Part shown: positions 13,220 through 63,572 of the stretch, one piece after another
How the letters are laid out: every line of letters starts with the position of its first letter
Position numbering within the stretch: the first letter of the stretch is position 1
From: Escherichia phage vB_EcoS_HZ_ZJUN2
DNA: 64,000 bases
Direction: 5' to 3' (one strand)
Sequence record: PP216084
The notes under the pieces: generated by a model
The model's input: only the letters and a program-made list of their open reading frames with translations
Told to the model about the DNA's origin: nothing
The model's database searches: none
Program-made: the position numbers and the translations under genes

Positions 13220-13326
13220 TCTTTTGAATAGCTTAATAATTAGGTCGGAATTTCCTCTAGCTAGTAAGTATAGCTTTTCATAATCGAAGAATTTAATTTT
13301 TGTTTTCTCCTCGAATTTATGTATAT

Positions 13327-13356
13327 ATTATACTAGATTTCGAGAGAATTTAGCAA
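13327..13356 (-). promoter_or_regulatory. T5-type sigma70 promoter (minus strand), copy 2 of a tandem pair
   Basis: Reverse complement reads TTGCTA - 18 bp - TATAAT followed by ATATACATAAATT. Confidence 0.6.
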
Positions 13357-13427
13357 CTAAAATTTTTATTTTTCTGCTTCGGACTTTCTTATCAATCCGA
13401 AACTTTCTCTCTCAAATTTATGTATAT

Positions 13428-13456
13428 ATTATACATCATTTATGAGCTGTTGCCAA
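13428..13456 (-). promoter_or_regulatory. T5-type sigma70 promoter (minus strand), copy 1 of a tandem pair
   Basis: Reverse complement reads TTGGCA - 17 bp - TATAAT followed by ATATACATAAATTTGAGAGAG; overlaps the stop region of the helicase gene. Confidence 0.6.
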
Positions 13457-14792
13457 ATGCAATTTTAGCTAATTGAACTGCTTTCTCCGGAGTCATAGTA
13501 ATAGTTTTCCACCCGTTGTTACGATATACTGCCATACGTCCAGAAGCCTGTCTTAGTCCAGTGCCACCTTTCATAATTAGATCTACAACAATAGGGTCTA
13601 GTTTACCCTCGACAATACGTTGAACACGTCCTGCAAGCTGTTCAATGAGAGATTCATTATTAATGAGACTTCCCATTATTAAACAAGATAACTCATTAAG
13701 AGAAATACCTTCAGAGAAGATACTTTGAGCTGCTGCAAGTACACAAGGTCCACCTTTTGCTATATCTTCCTGAATTTTTAATCGGTCATCTAAGTGGGTT
13801 GCCCCTATAATTTCATATGTTGTAACACCACGCTGTGCAAGAGCTTCTAGTACTGTTTGGATTAACTCTGTTCTGTCACTTACAATGAGTACTTTATGCC
13901 CCATATTCACATATAAATGTGCTAGATTTATAATAGTCTCTCGATATTCAGGATGGTTGTACACATCATTAGCACGTAATGCCCAGGGTACGTTTTGGTT
14001 TCCTGATAACTCAACAGGTACGGAGTACCTATGGATTGTAGGTGCAACAGTATTATTAACCGGTGGGCTAAAGATCTTATATCCAAAGAAATCTTTGAAC
14101 ATAACTTGTAGACCATCTTTACGTTTTAATGTTCCAGATAGTCCAATCTTATAGCGAGCACATGATATTTCTAGGAAGTTAGTGAAAGTTGTGGCCACAC
14201 AATGGTGAACTTCATCAACTATAACAGTACCGAATACTTTAGACAGATTATTCGCATGTTTATTCACTGTTTGAATATTACTGACCACAATTGGTGGATC
14301 AATATTGTATTTCCCAGAACCTATGATACCCGGTTCAAACCCAAACCATTTACGAACTTCTGCCGCCCACATTTCACGAATAGATGTGTTGGTACAAATT
14401 ACCAAAGTTTTCTGGCCAAATTTATACGCAAGTGCAAGGGCTAGGATAGTTTTACCAAATCCAGGCTTACCATTAATAATACAGGTATCATCGCATTCTT
14501 CGTATATTGGAAGCTGATCTTCTTCACGCAGCTTGAACTTAGGTTTTGGTATATCTACCGGAGCTAATGTGCGTTTATCAACTAATTCATATTTTACTCC
14601 TTTAACATCTAGTAAATCCAGACGCGTGATAGGAATCCACTTAATCTCTTTAGCAACAACACCACTATTCTTATACATAATAGGGTATTTACTAGTCATT
14701 GTCTCTATGTGATAAGTGGTTTGCTTACTACAATAATCCCAAAGTTCATCATCGGGCTTGAAATATGCTTTATTAGATATAACAACCTTCAT
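13440..14792 (-). CDS. SF2 (DExH-box) DNA helicase (D10-like)
   Basis: Walker A GKPGFGKT, DExH box VIVDEVHH. Confidence 0.8.
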   Translation of the reverse strand: MKVVISNKAYFKPDDELWDYCSKQTTYHIETMTSKYPIMYKNSGVVAKEIKWIPITRLDLLDVKGVKYELVDKRTLAPVDIPKPKFKLREEDQLPIYEECDDTCIINGKPGFGKTILALALAYKFGQKTLVICTNTSIREMWAAEVRKWFGFEPGIIGSGKYNIDPPIVVSNIQTVNKHANNLSKVFGTVIVDEVHHCVATTFTNFLEISCARYKIGLSGTLKRKDGLQVMFKDFFGYKIFSPPVNNTVAPTIHRYSVPVELSGNQNVPWALRANDVYNHPEYRETIINLAHLYVNMGHKVLIVSDRTELIQTVLEALAQRGVTTYEIIGATHLDDRLKIQEDIAKGGPCVLAAAQSIFSEGISLNELSCLIMGSLINNESLIEQLAGRVQRIVEGKLDPIVVDLIMKGGTGLRQASGRMAVYRNNGWKTITMTPEKAVQLAKIAFGNSS

Positions 14793-17846: not shown

Positions 17847-17907
17847 ATTTAATCTCCTCTTGGTAAGTAAGTATAACTTCAGTGTTTCTTCTCTAACTTA
17901 CCAATAT

Positions 17908-17937
17908 ATTATACCAAATCTTTAAGCGATTCAGCAA
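17908..17937 (-). promoter_or_regulatory. sigma70-like promoter upstream of the polymerase gene (minus strand)
   Basis: Reverse complement TTGCTG - 18 bp - TATAAT. Confidence 0.45.
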
Positions 17938-18799
17938 CTAAAATTTCAATACGTTTTGCTAACATATCAATTTCATCTTTGTTTAAATCACCAGGATCTT
18001 TGCCTTCGGGCAGAAGAAAGTTAGCAACTACAGGTGTTAAACGCGTTTTTGTACGAATTAGCTTGGCCAACGCTTGTGCAGCTTTATTACCCGAAGCATC
18101 ATTATCTAGTAAGATAACAACAACTTTTACACCAGCAATAATATAAGGACTGAACTTATCTGCAATGTTATCTGAAGTGAACTGATGTGTACCAAAGCAG
18201 CAAGAAGCATAGTCTATACCGTTATCCTCTAGGTTCAGCATATCAAAGATACCTTCAACTAGAATAAGAACTGGAGTATTATATCGTACAGGGAAAATCG
18301 GTGGTGAAACTTGTTTTGGTTTTACTAAGTATTTAGGAGGGGCAGAACTGTTTATAGAACGACCCAAAAATAGGATATTGCGTCCAACAGCATCTGTGAT
18401 TGGGAATACAATTCTGCCTTCCCAGTCTGCTTGATGTTGGAAAGCAAAATATTTCTTCAAGGTCTTAGAACTTATACCTCGGAAATCACCTTCGAAAAGG
18501 TAAGCAGATTCAGGAATTGCAAGATTCGTTGATCCATTCCTAATCTCTGAAATCTTTTTACGTACCTGTGATAGTCTTGGAGACTGTCGGTACTGAGTCT
18601 CATTAAAATAATGGTAAATGCTCGGTATACCTTTACCGAAGCCACAACTCAAGCAGTGCATAATACCTGTTTCAGGATCAATACGCAAACTTGGGTGTTT
18701 ATCGTCATGATCTGGATTGAGACAACATATAAGAATATCACCACCTGTATCTTTATACTCAATGCCTTTCAGATCAAGTAGTTCTGTTATTCTACTCAT
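17909..18799 (-). CDS. DnaG-like DNA primase (zinc-binding domain + Toprim)
   Basis: CCLNPDHDDKHPS…HCLSCG zinc motif; Toprim LVEGIFDMLNLEDNG and LLDNDASGNKAA. Confidence 0.75.
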   Translation of the reverse strand: MSRITELLDLKGIEYKDTGGDILICCLNPDHDDKHPSLRIDPETGIMHCLSCGFGKGIPSIYHYFNETQYRQSPRLSQVRKKISEIRNGSTNLAIPESAYLFEGDFRGISSKTLKKYFAFQHQADWEGRIVFPITDAVGRNILFLGRSINSSAPPKYLVKPKQVSPPIFPVRYNTPVLILVEGIFDMLNLEDNGIDYASCCFGTHQFTSDNIADKFSPYIIAGVKVVVILLDNDASGNKAAQALAKLIRTKTRLTPVVANFLLPEGKDPGDLNKDEIDMLAKRIEILVAESLKDLV

Positions 18800-22423: not shown

Positions 22424-22450
22424 ATTTCTTCCTTATCAATTTATATAAAT

Positions 22451-22479
22451 ATTATAGCAAGTATTTAAGCATTTAGCAA
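22451..22479 (-). promoter_or_regulatory. T5-type promoter inside the ligase intergenic region (minus strand)
   Basis: Reverse complement TTGCTA - 17 bp - TATAAT followed by ATTTATATAAATT. Confidence 0.6.
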
Positions 22480-22543
22480 CTACAATTTTAATTAACTTTG
22501 CTTACCCTCGCCATAACTTTCTATCCCTCAACTGAATGATAAT

Positions 22544-22572
22544 AGTATATACCTAAGCGGCGAAAATGTCAA
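22544..22572 (-). promoter_or_regulatory. second sigma70 promoter inside the ligase intergenic region (minus strand)
   Basis: Reverse complement TTGACA - 17 bp - TATACT. Confidence 0.5.
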
Positions 22573-23787: not shown

Positions 23788-24060
23788 TCACCGTACCTCA
23801 TATGCTTTAGGCTGTCTAGTGGATCCGTGCCATGTATAATTTTTGCAAAGATGCAAATATGTAGTTTTTACTAGCCTATCCGATAATGGAGAGTATATTT
23901 CAGCTATTAATACTTCTTTTTCGTAATAAAGTGAAATCAGTTTATACCCAGTTCTAGTTTTAGTATACTTTTCCCCATTAATCTTTTCCTCCCACATGAG
24001 TATGAGAGGCTGTCCGATATATGGAAAAGGTTTAAGTGTACTTATATTTATCTTTTTCAC
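23788..24060 (-). CDS. hypothetical protein
   Basis: 90-aa ORF downstream of the promoter at 24091-24119. Confidence 0.45.
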   Translation of the reverse strand: MKKINISTLKPFPYIGQPLILMWEEKINGEKYTKTRTGYKLISLYYEKEVLIAEIYSPLSDRLVKTTYLHLCKNYTWHGSTRQPKAYEVR

Positions 24061-24090
24061 TTTGCAACCCTCTCATTAATTTATATAAAT

Positions 24091-24119
24091 ATTATATAAC
24101 AAAACTGAGTTGAAAGCAA
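24091..24119 (-). promoter_or_regulatory. T5-type promoter (minus strand)
   Basis: Reverse complement TTGCTT - 17 bp - TATAAT followed by ATTTATATAAATTAATGAGAG. Confidence 0.6.
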
Positions 24120-24125
24120 ATACAT

Positions 24126-24437
24126 TTATTCTTTTTCCGCCAGGCGTTTAGCTTCTTTTTCTACTTCTAATAAAACCTCACTATTAGATAATATTTTAGT
24201 AAATGCCTTAAATAAATGAGATGTTGTTTCTAGAGTGTATGGCATACTGAATCCACTTTTTGTTGGAAACCATTCACCTTCTATATCTTGGAGCCAGTAC
24301 CTAATTCCTAAGTATAGATTCCCCCTAAACTCAGATACAGTTAGCCTAACCTGTTGGCCATCTTCTCTCTCCCAGATAACTATGGACTGATCATCTACAT
24401 GTCCAACATAATCCTGATTTACATTATCTCCTGACAT
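24126..24437 (-). CDS. hypothetical protein
   Basis: 103-aa ORF. Confidence 0.45.
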   Translation of the reverse strand: MSGDNVNQDYVGHVDDQSIVIWEREDGQQVRLTVSEFRGNLYLGIRYWLQDIEGEWFPTKSGFSMPYTLETTSHLFKAFTKILSNSEVLLEVEKEAKRLAEKE

Positions 24438-25848: not shown

Positions 25849-25905
25849 ATTTTATATTTCCTTAATTAAGAATTAAACAGAATAGTTCTTTCAAACTATG
25901 AGAAT

Positions 25906-25934
25906 ATTATATCAAGAATTATAGGATTAAGCAA
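25906..25934 (-). promoter_or_regulatory. T5-type promoter (minus strand)
   Basis: Reverse complement TTGCTT - 17 bp - TATAAT. Confidence 0.6.
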
Positions 25935-25951
25935 CTGAAATTTTTCTGTAG

Positions 25952-26227
25952 TTACTCCACCAGGCCAACAGCGAGCATATCATCAATGCTGGCAATCTCC
26001 CAATCGTCGGCAATAGCTTCGCATACTGTTAACGTAACAACCTCACTATAGGGATAATTACCAGCTACCCAGGTATGCTGGGTAACTACATCCAAATCAG
26101 TATCCAAAGTTAATAATACTAAACCGTTATTATCGTTATTCCAACTTTTACGATATAAGGTTTTTGTTTCACCATCTTTCAGTAAATCTGTTAGTTTACT
26201 CACGGCGTTTTCCTTTTTCTTTATCAA
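25952..26227 (-). CDS. hypothetical protein
   Basis: 91-aa ORF; its 5' end overlaps the upstream gene. Confidence 0.4.
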   Translation of the reverse strand: MIKKKENAVSKLTDLLKDGETKTLYRKSWNNDNNGLVLLTLDTDLDVVTQHTWVAGNYPYSEVVTLTVCEAIADDWEIASIDDMLAVGLVE

Positions 26228-26900
26228 GTTTCAGGGCAGCCTTAACAGCTTCGTTAATCAACGTAATAATTTCTTCACGAGTCCATTTATATCCCAGAGA
26301 CTTTACGTCAACCCCTAACTTTTCCAGATGTTTAACAGAAGCCAGCTCGTAATTCATATAATGGACGTTCTGTTGTTTGCCCTCTGATAGAAGCCATACA
26401 CGGTAGCAACCAACAGGATTATCCATTGCTTTTTTGATTTCACCGATACACTGGTATCCAGGAACCCAAACAAGCTCACCAACTGCAAATTCTTCTGCTA
26501 CAGCATCATCAGGAATAATTGGAGGATTCAATGGATCTACAATATCGTTCAAACGAAGTAGAGCACCGTATCGTTCCAGAACAGATTTAACCATTGCTAC
26601 AGAGCGATAATTACGATCGGCAATTTCTTCAAAAGAATCACCAGACAAATACTGCTCAATAACGTTAGCTAACTCAATGCCTTCAATGAGAGTGCCGCGT
26701 TTCTTTTTCTTCATTTCGGCAACTTGAATCTGGCGGTCTTGCCATTCTTCAATCATCCTTTCCATAGTTGGGTTGGACGATACGCCGAGCATTTCACATG
26801 CTGCTTTCTTAGTACCACCGTTCTCCAGATGCTCTATAACCTTTTTAAAGACTTCATCTGGGATTTCATGGATATGTTTCTTTCTACGAGAAACAGCCAT
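26196..26900 (-). CDS. hypothetical protein with N-terminal helix-turn-helix-like segment
   Basis: 234 aa; first gene behind the N25-like promoter. Confidence 0.5.
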   Translation of the reverse strand: MAVSRRKKHIHEIPDEVFKKVIEHLENGGTKKAACEMLGVSSNPTMERMIEEWQDRQIQVAEMKKKKRGTLIEGIELANVIEQYLSGDSFEEIADRNYRSVAMVKSVLERYGALLRLNDIVDPLNPPIIPDDAVAEEFAVGELVWVPGYQCIGEIKKAMDNPVGCYRVWLLSEGKQQNVHYMNYELASVKHLEKLGVDVKSLGYKWTREEIITLINEAVKAALKLDKEKGKRRE

Positions 26901-26931
26901 ATTTAAACTCCTCTCTCAAATTTATGAATCT

Positions 26932-26960
26932 ATTATACAGAAATTTTTTGCACTATGCAA
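26932..26960 (-). promoter_or_regulatory. strong early promoter closely resembling the classical T5 N25 promoter
   Basis: Reverse complement AAAAATTTATTTGCAT - 17 bp - TATAAT then AGATTCATAAATTTGAGAGAGGAG, near-identical to the published N25 -10/downstream region as I recall it. Confidence 0.7.
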
Positions 26961-26968
26961 ATAAATTT

Positions 26969-27211
26969 TTACGATTCCTTGAGCAAAGAAGCAAGTTCAG
27001 CATAGACTTTATCTAACTCAAAGCCGATGCGAAGAGACACGTTTGTTTTCCGTTGTTTAAGTAACCACTCGGATATGTTAGGGATGCCAGCTAGTCTAGC
27101 AGGAACCACCCTACATAGCTTTTCCGAAGTATCATAAACAGGAACTTTACGTTCTTTTACTGGAAACTTCCTTGTTTCCCATTTTTTATTATTCACTGTC
27201 ATTTCTAGCAC
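26969..27211 (-). CDS. hypothetical protein
   Basis: 80-aa ORF. Confidence 0.4.
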   Translation of the reverse strand: MLEMTVNNKKWETRKFPVKERKVPVYDTSEKLCRVVPARLAGIPNISEWLLKQRKTNVSLRIGFELDKVYAELASLLKES

Positions 27212-29975: not shown

Positions 29976-30473
29976 AACAATACTCCTGTGTTGGTTAATC
30001 GAAAATCTTTTCTTTAGGACTATTCAGAAAGAATAGAACAACTATTACTACTATTTACGTAAACATCAATTATCATCAAGCAATATGAATAAGTTATCAT
30101 ATCTCAGTGCTGTGCTCTCTTCGCTCATATACAGAATAGAACCTAGGTCATTGGCCGCTAAGCCGATTCTATTTGTCCTCACTATCCTATTGGTAGGTGA
30201 CTACTGTACGTGCCGCCATTCGCTGCTCTTTTCGTTCGCACCCCCATATAAAGCTCTGCCTATATAACGAGCTAAATATGCACGGTTTGGATTTACCTTT
30301 CCGAATTCAGGGTACACAGATCACTTAATTGAAGATTAACTAATGCAATATAAACACTAGTAATAGTTAAAACAACCCTTAATGGGGCAGCCTAACTGTT
30401 CCGTATCGCGGATTGTAAACAAGAAAAATTAGCAAAATCAATTTTTACTAATGTCTCTCAATTCAATATAAAT

Positions 30474-30502
30474 ATTATATCAAGATTTTGGGCATCATGC
30501 AA
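30474..30502 (-). promoter_or_regulatory. T5-type promoter (minus strand), about 490 nt upstream of the NTPase gene
   Basis: Reverse complement TTGCAT - 17 bp - TATAAT followed by ATTTATATTGAATTGAGAG. Confidence 0.55.
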
Positions 30503-30593
30503 GTAAATTTTTCCCAAAGGTGCTATCAGTGTCTTTGAGCATAGAGAAAACCGAGCCAAAATGACTCGGTAATCAGAGTTCAGCTAATAAAAA

Positions 30594-33649: not shown

Positions 33650-33677
33650 ATCTTTCTCCCATCAAATTTATAAATCT

Positions 33678-33706
33678 ATTATATATAAATTTTTGGCTGA
33701 AAGCAA
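33678..33706 (-). promoter_or_regulatory. T5-type promoter (minus strand)
   Basis: Reverse complement TTGCTT - 17 bp - TATAAT followed by AGATTTATAAATTTGATGGGAG. Confidence 0.6.
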
Positions 33707-33747
33707 ATAAAATAAAAGCCAGGTCGACTAGCAACCCGGCTTTTATT

Positions 33748-36424: not shown

Positions 36425-36452
36425 TCCTCTTCTCCACAGAATTTTTACACCT

Positions 36453-36481
36453 ATTATACTAAACATTATCCACTATGTCAA
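36453..36481 (-). promoter_or_regulatory. consensus sigma70 promoter (minus strand)
   Basis: Reverse complement TTGACA - 17 bp - TATAAT. Confidence 0.65.
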
Positions 36482-36618
36482 TTAAAATTTTCTTTCGTCA
36501 TCTAATACTGTAATATTTCGCGTATAAATAAATGATTATCTAGTATCATACTTCTACCTTTATAAGCAAGCAAATTTTTTATTTAAATGCAATATCATAG
36601 GCTTATTTAAAATTGTAG

Positions 36619-36647
36619 TTGCTTTTTACTGCATATACTGGTATAAT
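36619..36647 (+). promoter_or_regulatory. T5-type promoter for the phoH-nrdA operon
   Basis: TTGCTT - 17 bp - TATAAT followed by ATATTTGTAAGTTGATAAAC. Confidence 0.65.
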
Positions 36648-36714
36648 ATATTTGTAAGTTGATAAACAAGATCTCTTTGTTGATCCTCTGTTAGAAGCGA
36701 AGTACACTATAGGA

Positions 36715-37675: not shown

Positions 37676-37819
37676 GTGGCCAAAAACTAGACTGACAACA
37701 CAGAAGGCCTGGGTATGAAAATACTCGGGCCTTTTCTATCAGAAAATTTTATTTGCCAAATGACCGAGAATAAAGTAAACTATTTCCTAAATCCTGATAA
37801 CTATAAAAAGGAAAACCAA

Positions 37820-40150
37820 ATGAGCCATCGCATTGAAAAAGTAATTAAACGTGACGGTACTGTAGAAGACTTTGCTCCTGAAAAACTCAATGGTTGGGCA
37901 GAGTATGGTTGTAAAACAGTTGATGTAAGTTGGTCAGCCATTACTATGGCTGCCCAAAAAACTCTGCCTAAAGGGGTTGTAGATTCCGACACTCTGATGG
38001 ATGCTTTAATTAAGGCCGCTGAAAGTCTTATCAAAGATAATCCAGCATACGACGTGCCAGCAAAGGAATTACGTCTTGCACAGATGCGTAAACGCCTTTA
38101 TGATTCCTTTGAACCACCTTCTCTACGCTTCTTCCATGATCATATGGTTAGTGTAGGTGCATGGGAAGACATGAGTGCATGGATTACCGATGAGCAGTTT
38201 GAGGCTTTGAATCAGGTTATTGACCATGATCGTGACCGTCTTTTCACTAGTGGAGGACTGAAACAATTCTTTGATAAGTATTCTCGCCGTAATATAGCAA
38301 CTGGCGAAATTTACGAAACCCCGCAGTTTGCCTACATGGGTATGGCAATGGCGATGTTATCTCAACCTAACTGGACAATTCTAGATGCAATCGACCTCTA
38401 CAATGCAATGTCACTCCACAAAATCAACGTTCCTACGCCGCCATTGGTTGGCTTGCGCTCTAGTGATCGTGGATTTGCTAGTTGTTGCCTCGTTGATTCC
38501 ACTGACACATTGGATTCAATCGACACAGCCGAGCACATCGTTTTTAAAATGGTCGCAGCCAGAGCGGGAATCGGGTATCATCTTGAAAGCCGATCAATTG
38601 CTGATCCGGTGCGAAATGGGGCATTCCCGCATTCCGGAAAACTGCCATATTATCGACACATTGACCGCTCAGTAAAGGCCAACACTCAGCAAACTCGTGG
38701 TGGTTCTGCTACAGTGTCTTATCCATACTTTGATCCTGAAATCATCCAGTTGATGCAGGTTAAGCAACAACGTGCTACAGACGAGAATAAAATCGATAAG
38801 ATGGATTATTCTCTGAGCTTTAACAATCTTTTGTTAAAACGTTATCTTAAAAATGAAGATATTACGCTAATGTCATATTTCTATGCTCCAGAAGTTCATG
38901 AAGCGTTTTATAGTGATGACGAGGCTAAATTTGAAGAAATCTATGTGGCAGCGGAGAAACGTGTGGCATCTCTTACAAAGATCGACCACGAAGGAAAAAC
39001 AGTTCCAGCAGCTCCTAAAGTCTCTGCAAAAGAAATCCTAGATACTTGGCTGCGTATCCGAATGGAAACAGGACGTATGTATGCCCACCACATTGGGGAA
39101 TCTAATCGTCACGGTAACTTCCTTGATCCGATCCGTATGACAAACCTTTGTGTTGAAATTACCCAGCCTACACACCCGTTCCATCACATTACAGAGCTGT
39201 ATAAGACAAAAGAGCAGCTTGACCAAATGAAGCCGGAGGATATTGGGGAAGTATCTCTATGTAACTTAGGTGGTGTTGTACTAGGACGCATGGAATCTCT
39301 GGCTGAGTGGGAAAAGACTTGCTATATTCTTCTGAAATTCGTTGATACCATCATTGAAATTCAGGATTATCCGTTCCCAACTATGGAATATACGGCTAAG
39401 AAACGTCGTAATGTTGGTATTGGCCTGATGAACGCAGCAGGTGCAATGGCGGCAGAAGGTCTGGCTTATGAAGGTATTGAAGCCCGTAACTGGATTCACC
39501 GTGAGGCTGAAAAACTGTCTTACTTCCTGCATAAAGCCTCTGTACGCCTAGCTAAAGAACAGGGTGCATGTGAGTGGTTTGATCGTACTAAACCATCTAA
39601 AGGAATTCTGGTAATCGACACGTACAAGAAAACTGTTGATGAACTGGTATCCGTAGGTCTAGAAATGGATTGGGAGTCTCTGCGCGCAGATATTCTGAAA
39701 TATGGTATGCGTAACTCTGTTCTGACTGCTCAGATGCCAGGAGAAAGTTCTTCTGTTCTGTTAGGTGTTACTAACTCTATTGAACCGCCTCGTAAGATTG
39801 TATCTATCAAGGGTAGTGCAGTAAATAAAGTAATTGCAATTGCTCCGGGTGCAACCGATTGGGAAACGTTAATGAGCTATAAACTAGCTTATGATGTAGA
39901 TCGTATCGAGTGGATCAAGTGGGTAGCAACTATGCAGAAATTCTTCAGTCAGTCTATCAGTACGAATATGTACTATGACTACACCAAGTTTGAGAATGAA
40001 ATCATTCCTGGCCCAGTAGTAGTTCGTGATTTCATGACTGCTGTTAAGTATGGGTGGAAAACTTGGTATTATGCTAACTTCAATACCGCAAATGGTGGAG
40101 GTGCTGGAGAAGAAGCAGCCGGTTGTGCATCCGGTGGTTGTACTATTTAA
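37820..40150 (+). CDS. nrdA: ribonucleoside-diphosphate reductase large subunit (class Ia)
   Basis: ATP-cone N-terminus; active-site TNLCVEI; C-terminal CASGGC; start placed at the MSHRIEK ATG (37820) behind AAAAGGAAAA. Confidence 0.85.
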   Translation: MSHRIEKVIKRDGTVEDFAPEKLNGWAEYGCKTVDVSWSAITMAAQKTLPKGVVDSDTLMDALIKAAESLIKDNPAYDVPAKELRLAQMRKRLYDSFEPPSLRFFHDHMVSVGAWEDMSAWITDEQFEALNQVIDHDRDRLFTSGGLKQFFDKYSRRNIATGEIYETPQFAYMGMAMAMLSQPNWTILDAIDLYNAMSLHKINVPTPPLVGLRSSDRGFASCCLVDSTDTLDSIDTAEHIVFKMVAARAGIGYHLESRSIADPVRNGAFPHSGKLPYYRHIDRSVKANTQQTRGGSATVSYPYFDPEIIQLMQVKQQRATDENKIDKMDYSLSFNNLLLKRYLKNEDITLMSYFYAPEVHEAFYSDDEAKFEEIYVAAEKRVASLTKIDHEGKTVPAAPKVSAKEILDTWLRIRMETGRMYAHHIGESNRHGNFLDPIRMTNLCVEITQPTHPFHHITELYKTKEQLDQMKPEDIGEVSLCNLGGVVLGRMESLAEWEKTCYILLKFVDTIIEIQDYPFPTMEYTAKKRRNVGIGLMNAAGAMAAEGLAYEGIEARNWIHREAEKLSYFLHKASVRLAKEQGACEWFDRTKPSKGILVIDTYKKTVDELVSVGLEMDWESLRADILKYGMRNSVLTAQMPGESSSVLLGVTNSIEPPRKIVSIKGSAVNKVIAIAPGATDWETLMSYKLAYDVDRIEWIKWVATMQKFFSQSISTNMYYDYTKFENEIIPGPVVVRDFMTAVKYGWKTWYYANFNTANGGGAGEEAAGCASGGCTI

Positions 40151-40158
40151 TAAAAACA

Positions 40159-40185
40159 AGGAGATCTTCGGGTCTCCTTTTTCTT
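40159..40185 (+). terminator. intrinsic terminator after nrdA
   Basis: Stem AGGAGA/TCTCCT, 8-nt loop, T5 run. Confidence 0.7.
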
Positions 40186-40196
40186 TGAAATTTTAC

Positions 40197-40225
40197 TTGC
40201 TAATCGCTACCAGATTTGCTATAAT
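40197..40225 (+). promoter_or_regulatory. T5-type promoter for the HNH gene inserted between nrdA and nrdB
   Basis: TTGCTA - 17 bp - TATAAT. Confidence 0.65.
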
Positions 40226-40249
40226 ATCTCTATATTAAGGAGATATACT

Positions 40250-40768
40250 GTGAAACCTAAACTAACAAAAGAATTTCTAGAGAAATATCTAGAACTTAGA
40301 GAAGATACTCTCTATTGGAAGCCAAGAGAGACTAATAAAGGTGGATTTAACACTAGATTTGCGGGAAAACCTGTAGGGGCCGTCAATGGAAATGGCTACC
40401 TATGCTTCCGACTTAATGTGGAAGGTTATAGATGGGAATTAAGAAATCATGTAGTAATCTACTGTCTCTATTATGGGTATTACCCAACTAAGACAGTAGA
40501 CCACAAAGATACAAATAAACTTAATAACCATCCTTTAAATCTACGAGAATCAACCGATGCTGGTAATGCTCAAAATAGGGGAGCCGGTAAGAATAATACC
40601 CATGGACATAAAAACCTAGAGCCTCTTAGTTCAGGAAACTGGAGGGTTAGGATAACACACAACGGTACTGTTTACAGATCTTCCGCAATGCCTCTAGAAA
40701 AAGCTCTAGAACATAGAGATATTAAACTTAAAGAATTTCATGGCGAATATGCTAACAATGGAGAATAA
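40250..40768 (+). CDS. HNH homing endonuclease with AP2-like domain
   Basis: GTG start; VDHKDTNKLNNHPLNLR HNH motif; C-terminal AP2-like WRVRI…ALEHRD segment. Confidence 0.7.
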   Translation: MKPKLTKEFLEKYLELREDTLYWKPRETNKGGFNTRFAGKPVGAVNGNGYLCFRLNVEGYRWELRNHVVIYCLYYGYYPTKTVDHKDTNKLNNHPLNLRESTDAGNAQNRGAGKNNTHGHKNLEPLSSGNWRVRITHNGTVYRSSAMPLEKALEHRDIKLKEFHGEYANNGE

Positions 40769-40771
40769 TTA

Positions 40772-43283: not shown

Positions 43284-43287
43284 CTTA

Positions 43288-43315
43288 AATAGCCCTTCGG
43301 GGCTATTATATTTAA
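43288..43315 (+). terminator. intrinsic terminator after thyA
   Basis: Stem AATAGCCC/GGGCTATT with TTCG loop, T-rich tail. Confidence 0.65.
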
Positions 43316-43322
43316 ATTTCAT

Positions 43323-43351
43323 TTGCTTACTGAGTGAAATTTAGATATAAT
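43323..43351 (+). promoter_or_regulatory. T5-type promoter
   Basis: TTGCTT - 17 bp - TATAAT followed by ATATTTTATAAATCGGAGA. Confidence 0.65.
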
Positions 43352-43375
43352 ATATTTTATAAATCGGAGACAACT

Positions 43376-44375: not shown

Positions 44376-44396
44376 TAAATAAATTAAAAAATTTTC

Positions 44397-44425
44397 TTGC
44401 TTAAAGCCCTCTAATTTAGTATAAT
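44397..44425 (+). promoter_or_regulatory. T5-type promoter bracketed by a 9-bp inverted repeat
   Basis: TTGCTT - 17 bp - TATAAT; AAAGCCCTC (44403-44411) and GAGGGCTTT (44444-44452) flank the -10 and RBS. Confidence 0.6.
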
Positions 44426-44452
44426 ATTCGTATTGAAAGTGAGGAGGGCTTT

Positions 44453-44731: not shown

Positions 44732-44747
44732 TTTTTAAAAAATTCAG

Positions 44748-44776
44748 TTGCTAAACGCTTCAAATTCTCGTATAAT
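44748..44776 (+). promoter_or_regulatory. T5-type promoter
   Basis: TTGCTA - 17 bp - TATAAT followed by ATACTTCATAAATTGATAAAC. Confidence 0.65.
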
Positions 44777-44814
44777 ATACTTCATAAATTGATAAACAAA
44801 AAGGAAAACAAATA

Positions 44815-45330: not shown

Positions 45331-45371
45331 TAGATAGGAGGGGCTTTCGCCCCTCATAGTTTGGAGAAACT

Positions 45372-45636: not shown

Positions 45637-46338
45637 ATGAAAGTAAAACCATTTGGTATGCTAGATATTGAATCTCTAGGAACTCCAGGAGATTGTGGTA
45701 CTACTCATATCGTAATGCCTTCTTTCGCTTTTGTGGCTATGCATGGGATTGATAAAGACCCTGACTTAGTATTTGCTACTTTGGATGTGCAGGATCAGCT
45801 TAATTCTGGTGCCAAAGTTACAGCATCTACTCTAGCATTCTGGATGGATCAAGCTAAAAATAGCCCGTCTGCTATTCACATTATGGAAGCTATGAAGGAA
45901 CGTAATCCAAAACTGATTGCCTTCCAAAATGGTAAACATCATTGCACTAATAAATTAGGCTCAAACTATGCTGCCTTCTCTATGGCTCAAAATATTATGG
46001 AGTTGGCTCTAGGCGAAAATGCTTTGTATTATGGCAATGGCCCAGAGTTTGATATGACTATCTACTCTGCAAACACGTTCCATGCTGGAACCAATGAAGA
46101 GGTAGTTCCGTGGAAATTCTGGAATTTAGGCAATGTTCGATCTCTTCGTAATCTCTGGATGCAAGCTGGTTATAGTTACAAAGATCTAGAGGCTGAAGGT
46201 ATTAGCTGGGCAAAAGCTAAAATGGAGAAGATGGACACCATTCGTTATGGGATCTATCCGGTTAAGCACGACCCAGCATTCGATGCCCTAGTTGAGGGCT
46301 ATTGTGTTGCAGCTATGATCGAAAAAATGAAAATTTGA
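45637..46338 (+). CDS. putative DEDDh-family 3'-5' exonuclease (DexA-like)
   Basis: 233 aa; N-terminal LDIESLG (Exo I D-x-E) and C-terminal HDPAFDA (Exo III H…D) patterns. Confidence 0.5.
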   Translation: MKVKPFGMLDIESLGTPGDCGTTHIVMPSFAFVAMHGIDKDPDLVFATLDVQDQLNSGAKVTASTLAFWMDQAKNSPSAIHIMEAMKERNPKLIAFQNGKHHCTNKLGSNYAAFSMAQNIMELALGENALYYGNGPEFDMTIYSANTFHAGTNEEVVPWKFWNLGNVRSLRNLWMQAGYSYKDLEAEGISWAKAKMEKMDTIRYGIYPVKHDPAFDALVEGYCVAAMIEKMKI

Positions 46339-46339
46339 T

Positions 46340-46368
46340 TTGCTTCCGGCTCCAAAATTCTGTATAAT
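46340..46368 (+). promoter_or_regulatory. T5-type promoter
   Basis: TTGCTT - 17 bp - TATAAT followed by ATATTCATAAATTTGAGAAAAC. Confidence 0.65.
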
Positions 46369-46409
46369 ATATTCATAAATTTGAGAAAACAATAAAAGGA
46401 AAAACAAAT

Positions 46410-47284: not shown

Positions 47285-47667
47285 TAATTTAAAAGCTAGT
47301 AAATCGGTAGACGAAAGCCCAAGCATCTTACCTCGCAGCAGCGGTTGAAATACGAGGTTAAATAGGACCGCTGACCATACTATAAAGTATAATCTATTGG
47401 AGATTATGTTTATTACACCAGCCTTTTAAGCTGACACGTAAGAACAAAGCGTCGTTGATATTACCGACACAACTTCAAAGATCAACATTTAAGTATGAAA
47501 GCTGAAAAGTTTAAAGAACTCAAACTTCTAAACTTCTAAATCTAAAAGATGCAAAGTATTCGTTGATGATTCAAACCCTAGATCAAAGGTACATGGCTCA
47601 TAAGATATGGCCTGTGGCGCCTCTAGGCTGTTTATCGGTTTACTAGTTTCACAATTTAAAAATGTAT

Positions 47668-47696
47668 TTGCTAATCTACTAAATTATATGTATAAT
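47668..47696 (+). promoter_or_regulatory. T5-type promoter
   Basis: TTGCTA - 17 bp - TATAAT followed by ATATTTTTAAATTGATGAAAC. Confidence 0.65.
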
Positions 47697-47726
47697 ATAT
47701 TTTTAAATTGATGAAACGAGGCTATT

Positions 47727-48562: not shown

Positions 48563-49012
48563 ATGAAGGCAGCTTTGCTTTTAGTAGCTGCCCTTACCGT
48601 CAGCTTTAGTAGTCAGGCATCGCACGATGCAAAAGAAATAGATTGCATTGCTAAAAATATCTATTTCGAAAGTCGTGGTGAGGGCATAAAGGGAATGACG
48701 GCGATTGCACATGTTACTAAAAACCGTGTAAACTCCGGTAAATTCCCAGATTCCTACTGTAAAGTAGTATATCAGTCTAACCAGTTCTCTTGGGTATCCA
48801 AGAGACCAAAAGTTGATAAAACCGATGAGGCTTGGAAAACCGCCAAGAATTTAGCTAGAGTGATATACTACGTTGATTTACCACAAGATCCTACACATGG
48901 GGCTTTATACTTCCATAGCGGTAAAGATAAACCTTACTGGACAAAGAAATTTAAGAAAACAACTAAGATTAAGGGGCATACATTCTATAAACCTGTTGTC
49001 ACTAAAACTTAA
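48563..49012 (+). CDS. secreted SleB-like cell-wall hydrolase (Hydrolase_2-type)
   Basis: Signal peptide MKAALLLVAALTVSFSSQA; NIYFESRGEGIKGMTAIAHVTKNR…YQSNQFSW. Confidence 0.6.
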   Translation: MKAALLLVAALTVSFSSQASHDAKEIDCIAKNIYFESRGEGIKGMTAIAHVTKNRVNSGKFPDSYCKVVYQSNQFSWVSKRPKVDKTDEAWKTAKNLARVIYYVDLPQDPTHGALYFHSGKDKPYWTKKFKKTTKIKGHTFYKPVVTKT

Positions 49013-49020
49013 AAATTTAC

Positions 49021-49049
49021 TTGCTTAAATACTTAAATTTCCGTATAAT
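49021..49049 (+). promoter_or_regulatory. T5-type promoter
   Basis: TTGCTT - 17 bp - TATAAT followed by ACTTCCATAAATTAATGAGAGG. Confidence 0.65.
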
Positions 49050-49080
49050 ACTTCCATAAATTAATGAGAGGAAGCGAAAT

Positions 49081-49251: not shown

Positions 49252-49694
49252 TGGAAGAGAATATTTTAGATGTTTTGCGTAGAGCTTTGCAGGATTCTAA
49301 GTTTAATGGTTCTGATAAAGAAGTCGCTAAAAGCTATCAGACCATAATCGGGGATCTTCAGCGTATTGATAAAGATTTCATCACTTCTGAACAATTTGTG
49401 TCTTATCTCAAAGCTCAACTAAAAAGCATTAACCAGATGAAAGCTAAACTTCATGGTCAAGATCTCGATAGTTATAGCTTACAGTCTGCTCAGTATGAGT
49501 ATATTCTAAATAAATGGTTGCAGGAGTATCTGCCTCCTCAGTTATCTGATACTGAGATTCGTAAATACTTTGCAGAATTAGTTAAGCTAAACCCTGGAAT
49601 TACAAAGGGTATGCTGATGAAAGCGATTAAGGAAGAATTTCCTGGGCGTTATGATGGTGGTACTGCTGCTCAGATTGCTGGCGAATTTAATTAA
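49251..49694 (+). CDS. hypothetical protein, GatB/YqeY-domain-like
   Basis: 147 aa; C-terminal …FPGRYDGGTAAQIAGEF resembles YqeY-type domain ends (weak). Confidence 0.45.
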   Translation: MEENILDVLRRALQDSKFNGSDKEVAKSYQTIIGDLQRIDKDFITSEQFVSYLKAQLKSINQMKAKLHGQDLDSYSLQSAQYEYILNKWLQEYLPPQLSDTEIRKYFAELVKLNPGITKGMLMKAIKEEFPGRYDGGTAAQIAGEFN

Positions 49695-49702
49695 AAATTT
49701 AT

Positions 49703-49731
49703 TTGCTAAATGCCTTTAAATTCTGTATAAT
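49703..49731 (+). promoter_or_regulatory. T5-type promoter driving an ORF-free ~0.8-kb region
   Basis: TTGCTA - 17 bp - TATAAT followed by ATATTCATAAATTAGGGAAC. Confidence 0.65.
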
Positions 49732-49954
49732 ATATTCATAAATTAGGGAACAGCGAGCCGATTACGCTGAATGCAGAATCCCAACCGGAGCGCATTGAAT
49801 AGAGTCGGTGGGTTAGTTGTAAAACTAGTACACAGGGGGCGGCAATCCCGGTTAGTGGCTAGAACGTGTAAAATGAGGCGTCTGAAACCTCTCCCCTAAA
49901 CTCTTCTCTAATTTATAAATAGTGGGGTGTGGAAATCACTTATGTAGTAACACT

Positions 49955-51648: not shown

Positions 51649-51810
51649 AAGGTAGAGGATAAGTGTGTCTCTTTGGTCACTCAGCTATGACAAATACTTT
51701 ACACTATATCACATTGAAAATCAAGTGGGGATAACAATTTTGGGGTCTATCCACTTACCTGCTACCATTAAGCATCCTGTTATTTTCCTCTAAAAAGTTA
51801 AAAAATTCAA

Positions 51811-51839
51811 TTGCTTGAATGCTAAATTCTCTGTATAAT
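51811..51839 (+). promoter_or_regulatory. T5-type promoter
   Basis: TTGCTT - 17 bp - TATAAT followed by ATATTTATAAATTTGAGAGAGG. Confidence 0.65.
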
Positions 51840-51869
51840 ATATTTATAAATTTGAGAGAGGAATCTAGT

Positions 51870-52388
51870 ATGACTGTTGATGAACTAACAGAACATCTCT
51901 TATCTAGAGGGTTTGATACAGATAAGTATCATTGCTGGTTAAGCCAGGAAGGATGGCTAACAGTCCCGTTGTATGACTTCTCTGGGATGTTGAGAGGCTA
52001 TCAAACTTATAATCCTTCTGCTCCAAAAGGTCATGGTAAGTGTCCCTTTGAAGCTAAATATTTTACTTATTCTACTACCCAGTGTGTATGGGGATTAGAA
52101 ACTCTCAATGGAGATGAAAAAGTAGTATTGATTGCTGAATCTGTATTTAAGGCAGTTGCGTTACATAACGCTGGTTATCCAGCCCTGGCAATGTTGGGTT
52201 CTTCCCCCGGAAAAGCATTATTAAAGCAATTGAAATTATTACCTTTTAAATTGGTAGCTGTAGGAGATAATGATCCTGCGGGTGAAAAATTTGCTAGAAA
52301 ATTAAACGGCTTTGTTTCTCCTGTAGATGTAGATGAGATGTCTACCGAAAACTTGAAAAATTTTCTTGCTATGAAGCTAAATTTCTAA
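51870..52388 (+). CDS. small Toprim-domain protein
   Basis: Start at the ATG behind GAGAGAGGAATC; VVLIAESVFKAVAL…VAVGDNDPAGEK Toprim acidic motifs. Confidence 0.55.
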   Translation: MTVDELTEHLLSRGFDTDKYHCWLSQEGWLTVPLYDFSGMLRGYQTYNPSAPKGHGKCPFEAKYFTYSTTQCVWGLETLNGDEKVVLIAESVFKAVALHNAGYPALAMLGSSPGKALLKQLKLLPFKLVAVGDNDPAGEKFARKLNGFVSPVDVDEMSTENLKNFLAMKLNF

Positions 52389-52394
52389 TATAAT
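52366..52394 (+). promoter_or_regulatory. T5-type promoter overlapping the 3' end of the Toprim gene
   Basis: TTGCTA - 17 bp - TATAAT followed by ATATTTATAAATTCGGAAG. Confidence 0.6.
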
Positions 52395-52408
52395 ATATTT
52401 ATAAATTC

Positions 52409-52497
52409 GGAAGAATAGCATAACGGTATTGCAGCAGATTGCTAATCTGTCGGTTTGAAATATAGCCTTGTGGGTTCGATTCCCACTTCTTCCGCCA
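52409..52497 (+). tRNA. tRNA-Ser (anticodon GCT), long variable arm
   Basis: Acceptor GGAAGAA/TTCTTCC, anticodon loop TTGCTAA, 19-nt variable arm, T-loop TTCGATT, discriminator G, CCA. Confidence 0.7.
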
Positions 52498-53684: not shown

Positions 53685-53714
53685 CTCCTCCGAACAGAAT
53701 TTTTAAAAATGTAC

Positions 53715-53744
53715 TTGCCTTTTGCTTTAAATTTCTGGTATAAT
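53715..53744 (+). promoter_or_regulatory. T5-type promoter
   Basis: TTGCCT - 18 bp - TATAAT followed by AGTTATATAAATTGATGAAGG. Confidence 0.6.
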
Positions 53745-53774
53745 AGTTATATAAATTGATGAAGGAGTTAACGA

Positions 53775-54050: not shown

Positions 54051-54086
54051 CTAATACAGCACTGAGCAAGTTCTTTAAAATTTGAC

Positions 54087-54115
54087 TTGCTCAGTGCCTT
54101 AAAACTTGGTATAAT
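54087..54115 (+). promoter_or_regulatory. T5-type promoter whose -35 lies in the 3' arm of a 12-bp hairpin (54059-54097)
   Basis: TTGCTC - 17 bp - TATAAT; inverted repeat AGCACTGAGCAAG…CTTGCTCAGTGC. Confidence 0.55.
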
Positions 54116-54249
54116 AGTTATCTAATTTGGAAAGTTCTTTTTAAGGTAGTTCTTACTTTAGCAGAGTAAACTTTCGGCAGATGGCGGCAGCCACTTTACC
54201 GATATTCCATAGTCAGTGCCGCAAACACTGGCTACCTTAAAGAGAATTT

Positions 54250-54603: not shown

Positions 54604-54876
54604 ATGCATCCTGAAAACTTCTTTATTTACTGCGCGGATAAGTCGCTGAAACGTAGAATTAACAAAGTCTATCATTATCGTGCTAGTCAACAGCCTTATG
54701 TATACGCTTTTGACGGTGATCACATTCCACTAGAACAATTATCTTGTGATTACATGATATTGAAGAACTTTGACGAGACGAAGATCTCAAGCGTTTATAA
54801 TCGACAGAATCCATTAACGTGGAAATATAAGAAGAAAAAGAAAGGCATCAAATTCTTAAAAAATATAGTTGCTTAG
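54604..54876 (+). CDS. hypothetical protein
   Basis: ATG at 54604 behind GAAGGAG, directly after tRNA-Phe. Confidence 0.45.
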   Translation: MHPENFFIYCADKSLKRRINKVYHYRASQQPYVYAFDGDHIPLEQLSCDYMILKNFDETKISSVYNRQNPLTWKYKKKKKGIKFLKNIVA

Positions 54877-54897
54877 TTTCCAAAAGTTCTGTATAAT
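54869..54897 (+). promoter_or_regulatory. T5-type promoter
   Basis: TTGCTT - 17 bp - TATAAT followed by AATTACATAAATTGAACTGGAG. Confidence 0.6.
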
Positions 54898-54945
54898 AAT
54901 TACATAAATTGAACTGGAGAAGCAACATGATAGAACAAGATAAAT

Positions 54946-56836: not shown

Positions 56837-56936
56837 AACAATTGCGGGTGGGAGGCATAGAGTTCTTCTTAGTCTCATAAGCTAAGTAAGTCCAGGGCAG
56901 TACTGGAACCCGCTACCAATTTCAAGAAAAACTCAT

Positions 56937-56965
56937 TTGCTTAATGCTTAATTTCTTGTTATAAT
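56937..56965 (+). promoter_or_regulatory. T5-type promoter driving an ORF-free ~0.3-kb leader and the Ala/Leu tRNAs
   Basis: TTGCTT - 17 bp - TATAAT followed by ATTTATATAAATTGATGCG. Confidence 0.65.
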
Positions 56966-56971
56966 ATTTAT

Positions 56972-57297
56972 ATAAATTGATGCGAAAATAGCTGCCTAGA
57001 TACCAGGTGTATGACGTCTACACTAGCAGAGCTACCGAAAAAGAGATCCTCAGGATAAACGTCGTAGCAAAATTAGTCTGGTATCCATCAATTTAGTTCA
57101 CTAAGGTATTAGCTCGACCTAGGACTGGCTGCCAAAAAGCACGATCCCTACGACTTGGGAGAAGTTCTAGATTAGTCCACTAGATTCAGCGGCAACTGAA
57201 TAGTGTATTGGGTTTGCGAGATGACGCGGTTCCTTCCGCTCGAAGCGAAGGTGCTGTAGTTACGCCGAGCTAATAGCCTTAGTAAACTAAAGAATTT
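56972..57297 (+). ncRNA. candidate non-coding RNA / structured precursor leader
   Basis: ~325 nt between promoter and tRNA-Ala with no plus-strand ORF longer than 15 codons; local hairpins such as CCTTCCGC-TCGAA-GCGAAGG. Confidence 0.3.
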
Positions 57298-59494: not shown

Positions 59495-59509
59495 AATTTA
59501 AAAATTCAT

Positions 59510-59538
59510 TTGCTTTCTCTCTTATTTATTGTTATAAT
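59510..59538 (+). promoter_or_regulatory. T5-type promoter
   Basis: TTGCTT - 17 bp - TATAAT followed by ATTTACATAAATTAATGAGAGGG. Confidence 0.65.
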
Positions 59539-59568
59539 ATTTACATAAATTAATGAGAGGGAAACCAA

Positions 59569-63497: not shown

Positions 63498-63512
63498 ATA
63501 ATAAAATTTTAG

Positions 63513-63541
63513 TTGCTTAGATGCCCAAACTTTTGTATAAT
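63513..63541 (+). promoter_or_regulatory. T5-type promoter
   Basis: TTGCTT - 17 bp - TATAAT followed by ATGTTTATAGATTGAGGCAAGAGG. Confidence 0.65.
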
Positions 63542-63572
63542 ATGTTTATAGATTGAGGCAAGAGGATTAAAT

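Follow-up and report, generated by a model that had tools for sequence, protein, structure and literature searches.

Twenty-eight T5-type early promoters with a conserved start-region box in Escherichia phage vB_EcoS_HZ_ZJUN2

The 64,000 nucleotides of Escherichia phage vB_EcoS_HZ_ZJUN2 analysed here (sequence record PP216084; this whole stretch is called the window) carry a family of 28 closely similar promoters of the phage T5 early type, in which a short box, ATAAATT, lies at a constant distance behind the -10 element and at the start of the transcribed region. Very probably these are composite early promoters for the σ70 RNA polymerase of the host, and the box belongs to an initial transcribed sequence (ITS) suited to efficient promoter escape. 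The promoter family, its consensus, and the box at +1 are already known, because the T5 orthologs are annotated in record AY543070 and a consensus was published in 2012 (PMC3326045). The practical value of the present analysis lies in annotation: 28 transcription units of the phage can be placed with confidence. Its by-products are of modest interest, namely the family-wide and early-specific occurrence of the box, its -10-like pattern of conservation, and the breaks of gene modules at the 3' edge of the promoters.

A first-pass annotation of the window had proposed about 30 near-identical promoters of this type, and pattern counts as well as a position weight matrix (PWM) place the 28 that we found far beyond chance. 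In the whole window the pattern TTGCTW-N17-TATAAT has 20 exact matches, against 0.05 expected from shuffled sequences, and TATAAT-N6-ATAAATTKR has 10 against 0.01; a motif search with the consensus thus confirms the family. An iterated PWM built from the clear copies retrieved 27 sites at 19 to 70 bits, with shuffled sequence never scoring above -3.8 bits, and the addition of a site with an 18-bp spacer at 17913, ahead of the polymerase gene, brings the total to 28, so that the proposed figure was a fair one. A generic scan of 40-60 kb for TTGACA/TATAAT σ70 promoters gave no enrichment (35 sites, 51.5 expected); this is uninformative because TTGCTT scores poorly against TTGACA, and the signal resides in sequence specific to the family.

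With the TATAAT hexamer numbered -12 to -7, conservation among the 28 copies is unbroken from -45 to about +14. It starts with an A-tract, AAAA(A/T)TT, at -45 to -39 (A at -45 to -42 in 25-26 copies and T at -40 in 26, with T conserved at -40/-39), and continues with TTGC at -35 to -32. The -35 hexamer is TTGCTT in 13 copies, TTGCTA in eight, and another TTGnnn in seven, so that the shared TTGCTT/TTGCTA of the first description fits 21 copies but not the remaining seven, which include the very copy it was illustrated with. Likewise, the 17-bp spacer is found in 25 copies but is 18 bp long in three; it is A/T-rich, with AAA at -21 to -19 and T at -17 to -15. The -10 element is TATAAT in all 28 and is always followed by A at -6 (TATAATA). 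The discriminator has six A/T-rich nucleotides, with T at -3 in 25 copies and a pyrimidine at -1 in 27. Next comes the start region, with A+1 in 22 copies, T+2 in 25, A+3 in 24, A+4, A+5 and T+6 in 23 each, and T+7 in 26; a purine run then extends to about +17. From -6 to +8 the family has almost no G or C. Of the 28 copies, 17 have the exact 7-mer ATAAATT in register, two have it shifted by one base, and the others have a degenerate form; allowing at most one mismatch within 1 nt on either side it is present in 22, and +1 to +7 hold 7.1 bits. The longer form ATAAATT(G/T)(A/G) originally given for the box is too strict, as the full 9-mer is exact in only 10-11 copies.

T5 early promoters have been among the best-studied bacterial promoters since the 1980s; one of them, N25, is a standard template for work on promoter escape and the basis of commercial T5 expression vectors. 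The copy at 26932-26960, which had been called nearly identical to N25, extends from the -35 to the -10 element; the minus strand reads TTGCAT-N17-TATAAT there, followed by AGATTC and then ATAAATTTGAGAGAGGAGTTTAAATATG. In AY543070 the feature 'promoter P-N 25' is annotated at 63043-63117, directly upstream of gene D2. Over 119 columns the two are 92% identical, with full identity from -17 to +20; they differ by TTGCAT for TTGCTT and by five changes in the spacer. The open reading frame (ORF) downstream of our copy (26196-26900, minus strand) matches T5 D2 at 231 of 234 positions (99%). This copy is the ortholog of T5 P-N25. The near-identity thus holds, including the gene behind the promoter, but the element lies on the minus strand and its -35 hexamer is TTGCAT, neither TTGCTT nor TTGCTA. 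The ITS of N25, which we take to be AUAAAUUUGAGAGAGGAGUU, matches the window from 26925 downward.

Orthology to T5 extends to nearly the whole family. Across the early region of the T5 record, features of 75 bp (about -55 to +20) are annotated as 'promoter', many under classical names, and their architecture and box are those of the window family. When 600-nt queries were compared with the whole T5 genome, 27 of the 28 window promoters aligned to such features: 17 to promoters with classical names (P-N25, P-N26, and P-K28a among others) and ten to unnamed features. The exception, the promoter at 36435..36491, takes the place that the nrdD promoter has in T5, yet BLAST gave no match between the two. 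Anatomy and orthology agree in identifying T5-type early promoters: the family shows the A-block at about -43, TTGCTw, a spacer of 17-18 bp, TATAATA, the +1 region, orthology to T5 promoters, and location in the early region. From this orthology the window promoters would belong to the early temporal class, and they are best explained as promoters read by the unmodified host σ70 RNA polymerase, as is known for T5 N25.

The genomic setting is that of a T5-like phage (Demerecviridae). A 20-kb slice of the window matched 554 phage records, with Salmonella phage SP01 on top (96% identity, 97% query cover) and many T5-like Escherichia and Salmonella phages after it. The window has the gene set of the T5 early region, with DNA polymerase, primase, helicases, a two-subunit NAD ligase, D2/D3/D5, NrdA/B/D, thymidylate synthase, and a cluster of 21-22 tRNA genes. 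Its orientation is opposite to that of AY543070, the T5 reference. All family promoters lie between 13.3 and 63.6 kb, amid genes for replication and nucleotide metabolism and tRNA genes, and none was found among the tail genes (1-6.8 kb of the window). Those up to 36.49 kb are on the minus strand and those from 36.61 kb on the plus strand, each co-oriented with its genes.

The position of the box relative to the transcription start can be read from N25. The non-template oligonucleotide of N25 covering -12 to +2 is TATAATAGATTCAT (Klimuk 2020, PMC7472727), which places +1 at the first A of ATAAATT and makes the box RNA positions +1 to +7. Primer extension in infected cells detects 11 of 19 T5 promoters (PMC7472727); we found no relevant transcription-start-site sequencing of T5 in the literature. 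The box keeps a constant distance from the -10 element, set by the 6-nt discriminator, while the distance to the first plausible start codon differs between copies (+19 to +71). It is equally intact at the promoters of tRNA and stable-RNA genes (52389, 49726, 54110, and 56960), and at 52389 a tRNA-Ser gene begins at +9, so a translation signal is impossible there. Its meaning depends on register: ATAAATT as such occurs 37 times in the window, 20 of these outside promoters and at about the level expected by chance for the composition, whereas of 13 occurrences of the 9-mer ATAAATT[GT][AG], 11 belong to promoters. The box is therefore meaningful only in register with the -10 element, and the idea of an independent repeated element was rejected on the 20 of 37 copies outside promoters.

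These observations bear on whether the box acts in the RNA, as an unstructured 5'-AUAAAUU leader that aids ribosome loading or controls mRNA stability. Most protein-coding copies do have short, stereotyped leaders, with a start codon at +19 to +26 and a purine-rich Shine-Dalgarno sequence at +9 to +17, and 30-nt leaders fold less than random genomic segments (-1.05 versus -2.67 kcal/mol). Shuffled leaders, however, have the same folding energy (-1.10 against -1.05), so the low structure follows from composition alone and selection for RNA structure, or for an unstructured leader, was rejected. Since the box tracks the -10 element and not the start codon, and is intact before tRNA genes, a translation signal is not the main reason for its conservation and was rejected as its sole role. 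We consider a function at the RNA level very unlikely.

Comparison with other phages shows how well the box is kept. Between the window and T5, changes number 0/150 in the -10, 5/150 in the -35, 13/250 in the A-tract region, 9/150 in the discriminator, 3/175 at +1 to +7, and 7/125 at +8 to +12; the rates rise to 0.19-0.20 per site from +13 onwards and to 0.12-0.14 upstream of -46, these counts mixing true orthologs with partial matches and the flank rates being inflated by non-homologous junctions. A non-circular test used a matrix covering -50 to -7 only, scanned on T5 and four distant relatives: Klebsiella phage GZ8 (Sugarlandvirus), Proteus phage PM135 (Novosibvirus), and the Vibrio phages Thalassa (Ermolyevavirinae) and D432. 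Each phage yielded 16-25 TATAAT sites, with 3.3-7.5 bits at +1 to +7 against 0.4-1.1 at +21 to +27, and 3.4-4.3 bits in the discriminator. As these sites were picked without reference to the box, the box is a trait of the Demerecviridae as a family, on hosts that differ widely. The architecture, including A at -6 and the A-T-A-A-A-n-T start, is kept in all four relatives, even in the Vibrio phages, in which the DNA polymerase shares no more than 49-57% identity with that of the window. In these two the best-conserved transcribed positions are +3A (17/17 and 19/21) and +7T (16/17 and 20/21). The downstream box had been called unusual for σ70 promoters, and rightly so: it is a real conserved element that ordinary σ70 promoters lack.

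Niu et al. (2012, PMC3326045), writing on the T5-like phage AKFV33, read the -43 and +1 regions as A/T-rich tracts that confer curvature, and one might accordingly see in the downstream conservation a general A/T-richness that bends the DNA or eases its melting; the near absence of G and C from -6 to +8 fits this. Yet among 127 promoters pooled from six phages 45 (35%) have exactly ATAAATT, where a random A/T 7-mer would be expected in about 1 of 128, and single positions of the box choose specifically A or T at 77-88%. The sequence is thus specific and more than A/T-rich. Plain A/T-richness was rejected on this count, and we hold the bending or melting explanation to be scarcely credible.

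In the reading that we favour, promoter escape, the A-tract at -45 to -39 would resemble the proximal subsite of an UP element, contacted by the C-terminal domain of the polymerase alpha subunit (alpha-CTD). The -35 hexamer TTGCT(T/A), deliberately non-consensus, would be combined with the 17-bp A/T-rich spacer, the perfect -10 extended by one base (TATAATA), and the 6-nt A/T-rich discriminator, while a (T/C)-A-T context would set the start at the A seven bases past the -10. The first 7-8 nt, made of A and U only, and the purine run GAGAGAGG would together form an ITS that lets a polymerase held tightly by the UP-like, -35, and -10 contacts escape efficiently; where a gene follows, the purine run would serve also as its Shine-Dalgarno sequence. 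Anatomy, register, conservation, class specificity, and T5 orthology were computed here, and the start and the escape function of N25 are taken from the literature; by analogy, the other 27 copies probably share both.

N25 binds E. coli RNA polymerase extremely tightly, its escape is rate-limiting, abortive RNAs of 2-10 nt are made, and escape takes place at +11 (PMC12464699). According to the account of Kammerer et al. (1986) given by Hsu & Han (2025, PMC12464699), replacing +3 to +20 by an 'anti' sequence cuts the yield of full-length RNA about 10-fold, and the half-life of escape rises from about 3 min to about 45 min. More generally, the first 20 or so transcribed bases can alter promoter output more than 10-fold, and a purine-rich ITS correlates with productive yield (PMC10911233, PMC5961368). 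The N25 escape results were obtained with purified host enzyme and no phage factor (PMC12464699). The box therefore needs no phage factor, and the earlier suggestion of a phage-specific initiation signal is unsupported, since the transcribed region of N25 governs escape with E. coli polymerase alone. Some points nevertheless weigh against the escape reading. The 7-mer is more specific than escape seems to need, and its restriction to the early class is not obviously required by escape. In high-throughput ITS data a T-G step near +6 slows escape (PMC5961368), and most copies have TG at +7/+8 or +8/+9, so that the box is not simply the fastest-escaping sequence. Moreover, the +1 positions of the window promoters are predictions that depend on N25 and the 6-nt spacing.

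The specificity of the box suggests another reading, in which TAAATT at +2 to +7 is a -10-like hexamer re-bound by region 2 of σ70, causing a pause at about +17/+18 or an altered abortive cycling; σ would be kept on the early elongation complex, which could provide a checkpoint for a phage or host factor to exploit. The motif T-A-n-n-n-T from +2 occurs in 66% of the 127 promoters and in at most 7% at other registers from -6 to +20, and n-A-n-n-n-T at +2 to +7 in 76%. In copies that deviate from the consensus, retention is highest at +7T (0.82), followed by +3A (0.72), +2T (0.71), +1/+4/+5 (0.65), and +6 (0.39). This order matches that of -7T, -11A, -12T ... -8 in a true -10 element, so that the conservation profile of the box mimics a -10 hexamer; the prominence of +3A and +7T in the Vibrio phages agrees with this as well. 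In E. coli, a canonical -10, a 6-7-nt spacer, and Y-R(+1)-Y (present in 74% of the 127 promoters) predict σ70-dependent pauses at +10-15, and an extra -10-like region predicts pauses at +16-20 (Sun et al. 2021, PMC7876045). On the other hand, the differences in retention are modest, and an A/T-rich ITS tuned for escape could produce the same pattern. From the start of the -10 to that of the hexamer the distance is 13 nt (-12 to +2), compared with a conserved 11 bp in the G1d promoters of E. coli (PMC7876045). Although N25 has been studied intensively, escape is placed at +11 and no σ-dependent pause is reported (PMC12464699); our literature search for such a pause at N25 found, alongside '-10-like' elements, only work with the artificial N25anti ITS. 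The pause elements of lambda pR' and lac and of the E. coli G1p/G1d promoters have the same canonical -10, 6-nt spacer, Y-R(+1)-Y, and early-transcribed T-A-n-n-n-T, but with the hexamer 11-12 nt after the -10, so the likeness to the T5-type arrangement is a resemblance only. TAAATT is the -10 hexamer of lambda pR', and we know of no Q-like factor in T5. We find σ-dependent pausing rather unlikely as an account of the box, and it is quite improbable that the box forms a σ-dependent checkpoint at every early unit of the Demerecviridae, on which gpT5.026 or D5 would act to time the early-to-late switch.

The relation of the box to promoter class is best seen in T5 itself. Every annotated T5 early promoter has the box or a close variant, including those of the left arm, P31A/B, the pol promoter, and that of the early-expressed lpp. 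The pre-early promoter P-H22 (TAAAAT atcgat TTAGGCAG) and the late promoters P-G25 (attgtt ATTAAAGAGGAG), P-J5 (gttagt AAACCTAATGG), and 110375 are without it, the class specificity thus resting on 4-5 non-early promoters. The transcribed region of P-G25 (24013-24087) reads ATTAAAGAGGAGAAATTAACTATG and has no ATAAATT; the same sequence is presumably the ribosome-binding site of commercial T5-promoter expression vectors. The main difference between early and late T5 promoters lies in the discriminator, which is ATATT in the early ones, and the authors of that comparison propose this early-specific discriminator as the determinant (Klimuk 2020, PMC7472727). The discriminator and box together (-6 to +7) might accordingly allow phage factors such as gpT5.026 and D5 to recognise early promoters for shut-off. 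The RNA-polymerase-binding protein gpT5.026 lowers the affinity of the polymerase 8-fold for the -12/+2 oligonucleotide of N25 but not for -12/-6, and early transcripts over-accumulate without it (PMC7472727). The T5 record describes the DNA-binding protein D5 as involved in the shut-off of early expression, and the deep conservation of the box, from Escherichia to Vibrio hosts, would fit co-evolution with a conserved phage factor. However, the effects of gpT5.026 in vitro are at most two-fold, and the early-to-late switch occurs without it (PMC7472727). Besides the small number of non-early promoters available for comparison, a role in discrimination is compatible with a function in escape, and its discriminator part has already been proposed in print. 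Recognition of this kind is possible, but we lean against it. Be that as it may, a box at +1 to +7 that is family-wide and early-specific brings the question of the early-to-late switch in T5 transcription into sharper focus.

Table 1. Predicted early promoters of the window. Spans cover -45 to +12; T5 orthologs are features of AY543070.
Span	Strand	+1	-35, spacer (bp), -10	Sequence	T5 ortholog	Remarks
13309..13366	-	13320	TTGCTA-18-TATAAT	ATAAATTCG	P31B	tandem with next
13410..13466	-	13421	TTGGCA-17-TATAAT	ATAAATTTG	P31A	
17890..17947	-	17901	TTGCTG-18-TATAAT	GTAAGTTAG	70987	DNA polymerase gene; box degenerate
22433..22489	-	22444	TTGCTA-17-TATAAT	ATAAATTGA	P-K28a	
24073..24129	-	24084	TTGCTT-17-TATAAT	ATAAATTAA	ligA promoter (65284)	T5 homology to +14
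25888..25944	-	25899	TTGCTT-17-TATAAT	ATAGTTTGA	P-N26	
26914..26970	-	26925	TTGCAT-17-TATAAT	AGATTC, ATAAATTTGAGAGAGGAG	P-N25	copy at 26932-26960; D2 ATG at +26
30456..30512	-	30467	TTGCAT-17-TATAAT	ATTGAATTG	58999	about 490 nt without ORF downstream
33660..33716	-	33671	TTGCTT-17-TATAAT	ATAAATTTG	55708	T5 homology to +9
36435..36491	-	36446	TTGACA-17-TATAAT	AAAAATTCT		weakest family member (29.9 bits); divergent pair, left arm
36609..36665	+	36654	TTGCTT-17-TATAAT	GTAAGTTGA	53638	divergent pair, right arm
40187..40243	+	40232	TTGCTA-17-TATAAT	ATATTAAGG	50061	box degenerate; homology to +12
43313..43369	+		TTGCTT-17-TATAAT	TATAAATCG	46937	box shifted 1 nt; homology to +1
44387..44443	+	44432	TTGCTT-17-TATAAT	ATTGAAAGT	46337	box degenerate
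44738..44794	+		TTGCTA-17-TATAAT	CATAAATTG	P-H207	box shifted 1 nt
46330..46386	+	46375	TTGCTT-17-TATAAT	ATAAATTTG	44393	
47658..47714	+	47703	TTGCTA-17-TATAAT	TTAAATTGA	43067	homology to +26
49011..49067	+	49056	TTGCTT-17-TATAAT	ATAAATTAA	P-D/E33	
49693..49749	+	49738	TTGCTA-17-TATAAT	ATAAATTAG	P16-17	head of tRNA/stable-RNA region; homology to +11
51801..51857	+	51846	TTGCTT-17-TATAAT	ATAAATTTG	P15a	
52356..52412	+	52401	TTGCTA-17-TATAAT	ATAAATTCG	P15b	tRNA-Ser from +9
53705..53762	+	53751	TTGCCT-18-TATAAT	ATAAATTGA	P15c	
54077..54133	+	54122	TTGCTC-17-TATAAT	CTAATTTGG	P14a	tRNA-Tyr/Glu/Trp genes
54859..54915	+	54904	TTGCTT-17-TATAAT	ATAAATTGA	P14b	homology to +40
56927..56983	+	56972	TTGCTT-17-TATAAT	ATAAATTGA	P13b	T5 homology -54..+10 only
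59500..59556	+	59545	TTGCTT-17-TATAAT	ATAAATTAA	P11	
61378..61434	+	61423	TTGCTA-17-TATAAT	ATAAATTGA	26722	
63503..63559	+	63548	TTGCTT-17-TATAAT	ATAGATTGA	24443	

The arrangement of the promoters in Table 1 and their surroundings show a few further features. The back-to-back divergent pair 36458(-)/36642(+), within 36435-36665, marks the switch in transcription direction of the early region. The tandem promoters at 13309-13466 (minus strand), orthologs of T5 P31A and P31B, lie 101 nt apart. Downstream of promoter 30479 (+1 at 30467), and up to the GTG that opens a gene for a 928-aa origin-binding protein, the transcribed minus strand has no ORF of at least 50 aa over about 490 nt (29976-30467); two more promoter-like sites (30417 and 30352) lie inside, and the counterpart gap in T5 (58999-59545) is likewise unannotated. 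This stretch might serve as a long leader, encode a non-coding RNA, or belong to an origin region. Three σ70-like promoters in the window are without the early box: TTGACA-17-TATACT at 22549 (22520-22560, minus strand), an ortholog of T5 P-K28b; TTGATT-17-TAAAGT at 51701 (51680-51730, minus strand), at the position of T5 P12 and oriented against the flanking early genes; and TTGCCA-17-TAAACT at 37776 (37750-37790, plus strand), which has the A-tract and a weak -10. Terminator-like hairpins are enriched in 40000-59999 of the window (25 found, 13.6 expected), and some lie directly upstream of early promoters, for instance 40158-40179 before promoter 40220, an arrangement that fits the terminator-promoter pairs annotated in T5. 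In an Rfam scan of the window only tRNAs were found. The tRNA finders differ, as Rfam adds 52504-52578 (38 bits) and 54512-54583 (33 bits), both on the plus strand and both missed by ARAGORN, while the tRNA-Tyr that ARAGORN places at 54250-54337 (plus strand) is absent from the Rfam list; several 'tRNA-like stable RNAs' are annotated in the corresponding region of T5.

At eight of the 27 promoters aligned to T5, homology between the window and T5 continues upstream and stops close to the start: 24096(-), 33683(-), 40220(+), 43346(+), 47691(+), 49726(+), 54892(+), and 56960(+). The breaks, all seen in this one genome pair, fall at +1, +9, +10, +11, +12, +14, +26, and +40, and six of them thus lie at +1 to +14, the 3' edge of the conserved box; at 56960 the shared part is just -54 to +10. 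Judged from these alignments, the downstream gene modules appear to have been exchanged at the eight promoters and the promoter retained. This suggests that the repeated promoters of about 60 bp are candidate recombination sites or, alternatively, that only promoter-preserving exchanges survive. Arbiol and colleagues reportedly described, in 2010, promoter-bounded mobile cassettes of T4-type phages, known as PeSL. The two systems are alike in having repeated early promoters at the junctions of swapped gene modules; unlike in the T4-type cassettes, the junction in the window is at the 3' edge of the promoter (+1 to +14).

Other parts of the family also have known counterparts. The AAAA(A/T)TT tract may be likened to the proximal subsite of an UP element, the A-tract bound by alpha-CTD; in N25 the UP element is described as canonical, and the spacer contains another UP-like tract (Hsu & Han 2025, PMC12464699). 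The 'downstream sequence region' (DSR) of N25 (Kammerer et al. 1986; Hsu laboratory), described in later accounts of that work as controlling late steps of initiation, namely promoter escape, has the same sequence as the transcribed region of the copy at 26932-26960. As far as those accounts go, the DSR experiments replaced +3 to +20 as a block, with the contributions of +1 to +7 and of the purine run unseparated. The consensus of 32 promoters of phage AKFV33 (AAAAATT at about -43, TTGCTw, 17-18 bp, TATAATA, and a '+1 region (TAAATT)'; Niu et al. 2012, PMC3326045) is identical to that of the window family, the number being 32 for a genome compared with 28 in our 64 kb. In that paper the +1 region is taken for A/T-richness of a generic kind, and register, class specificity, and family-wide conservation were not its subject (PMC3326045). 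The closest relatives of all are the T5 early promoters in the nomenclature of the Bujard laboratory, which agree with the window family in position, sequence, and architecture, element by element and with small sequence differences only. The same laboratory is said to have noted the homology of their transcribed regions as early as 1985-86.

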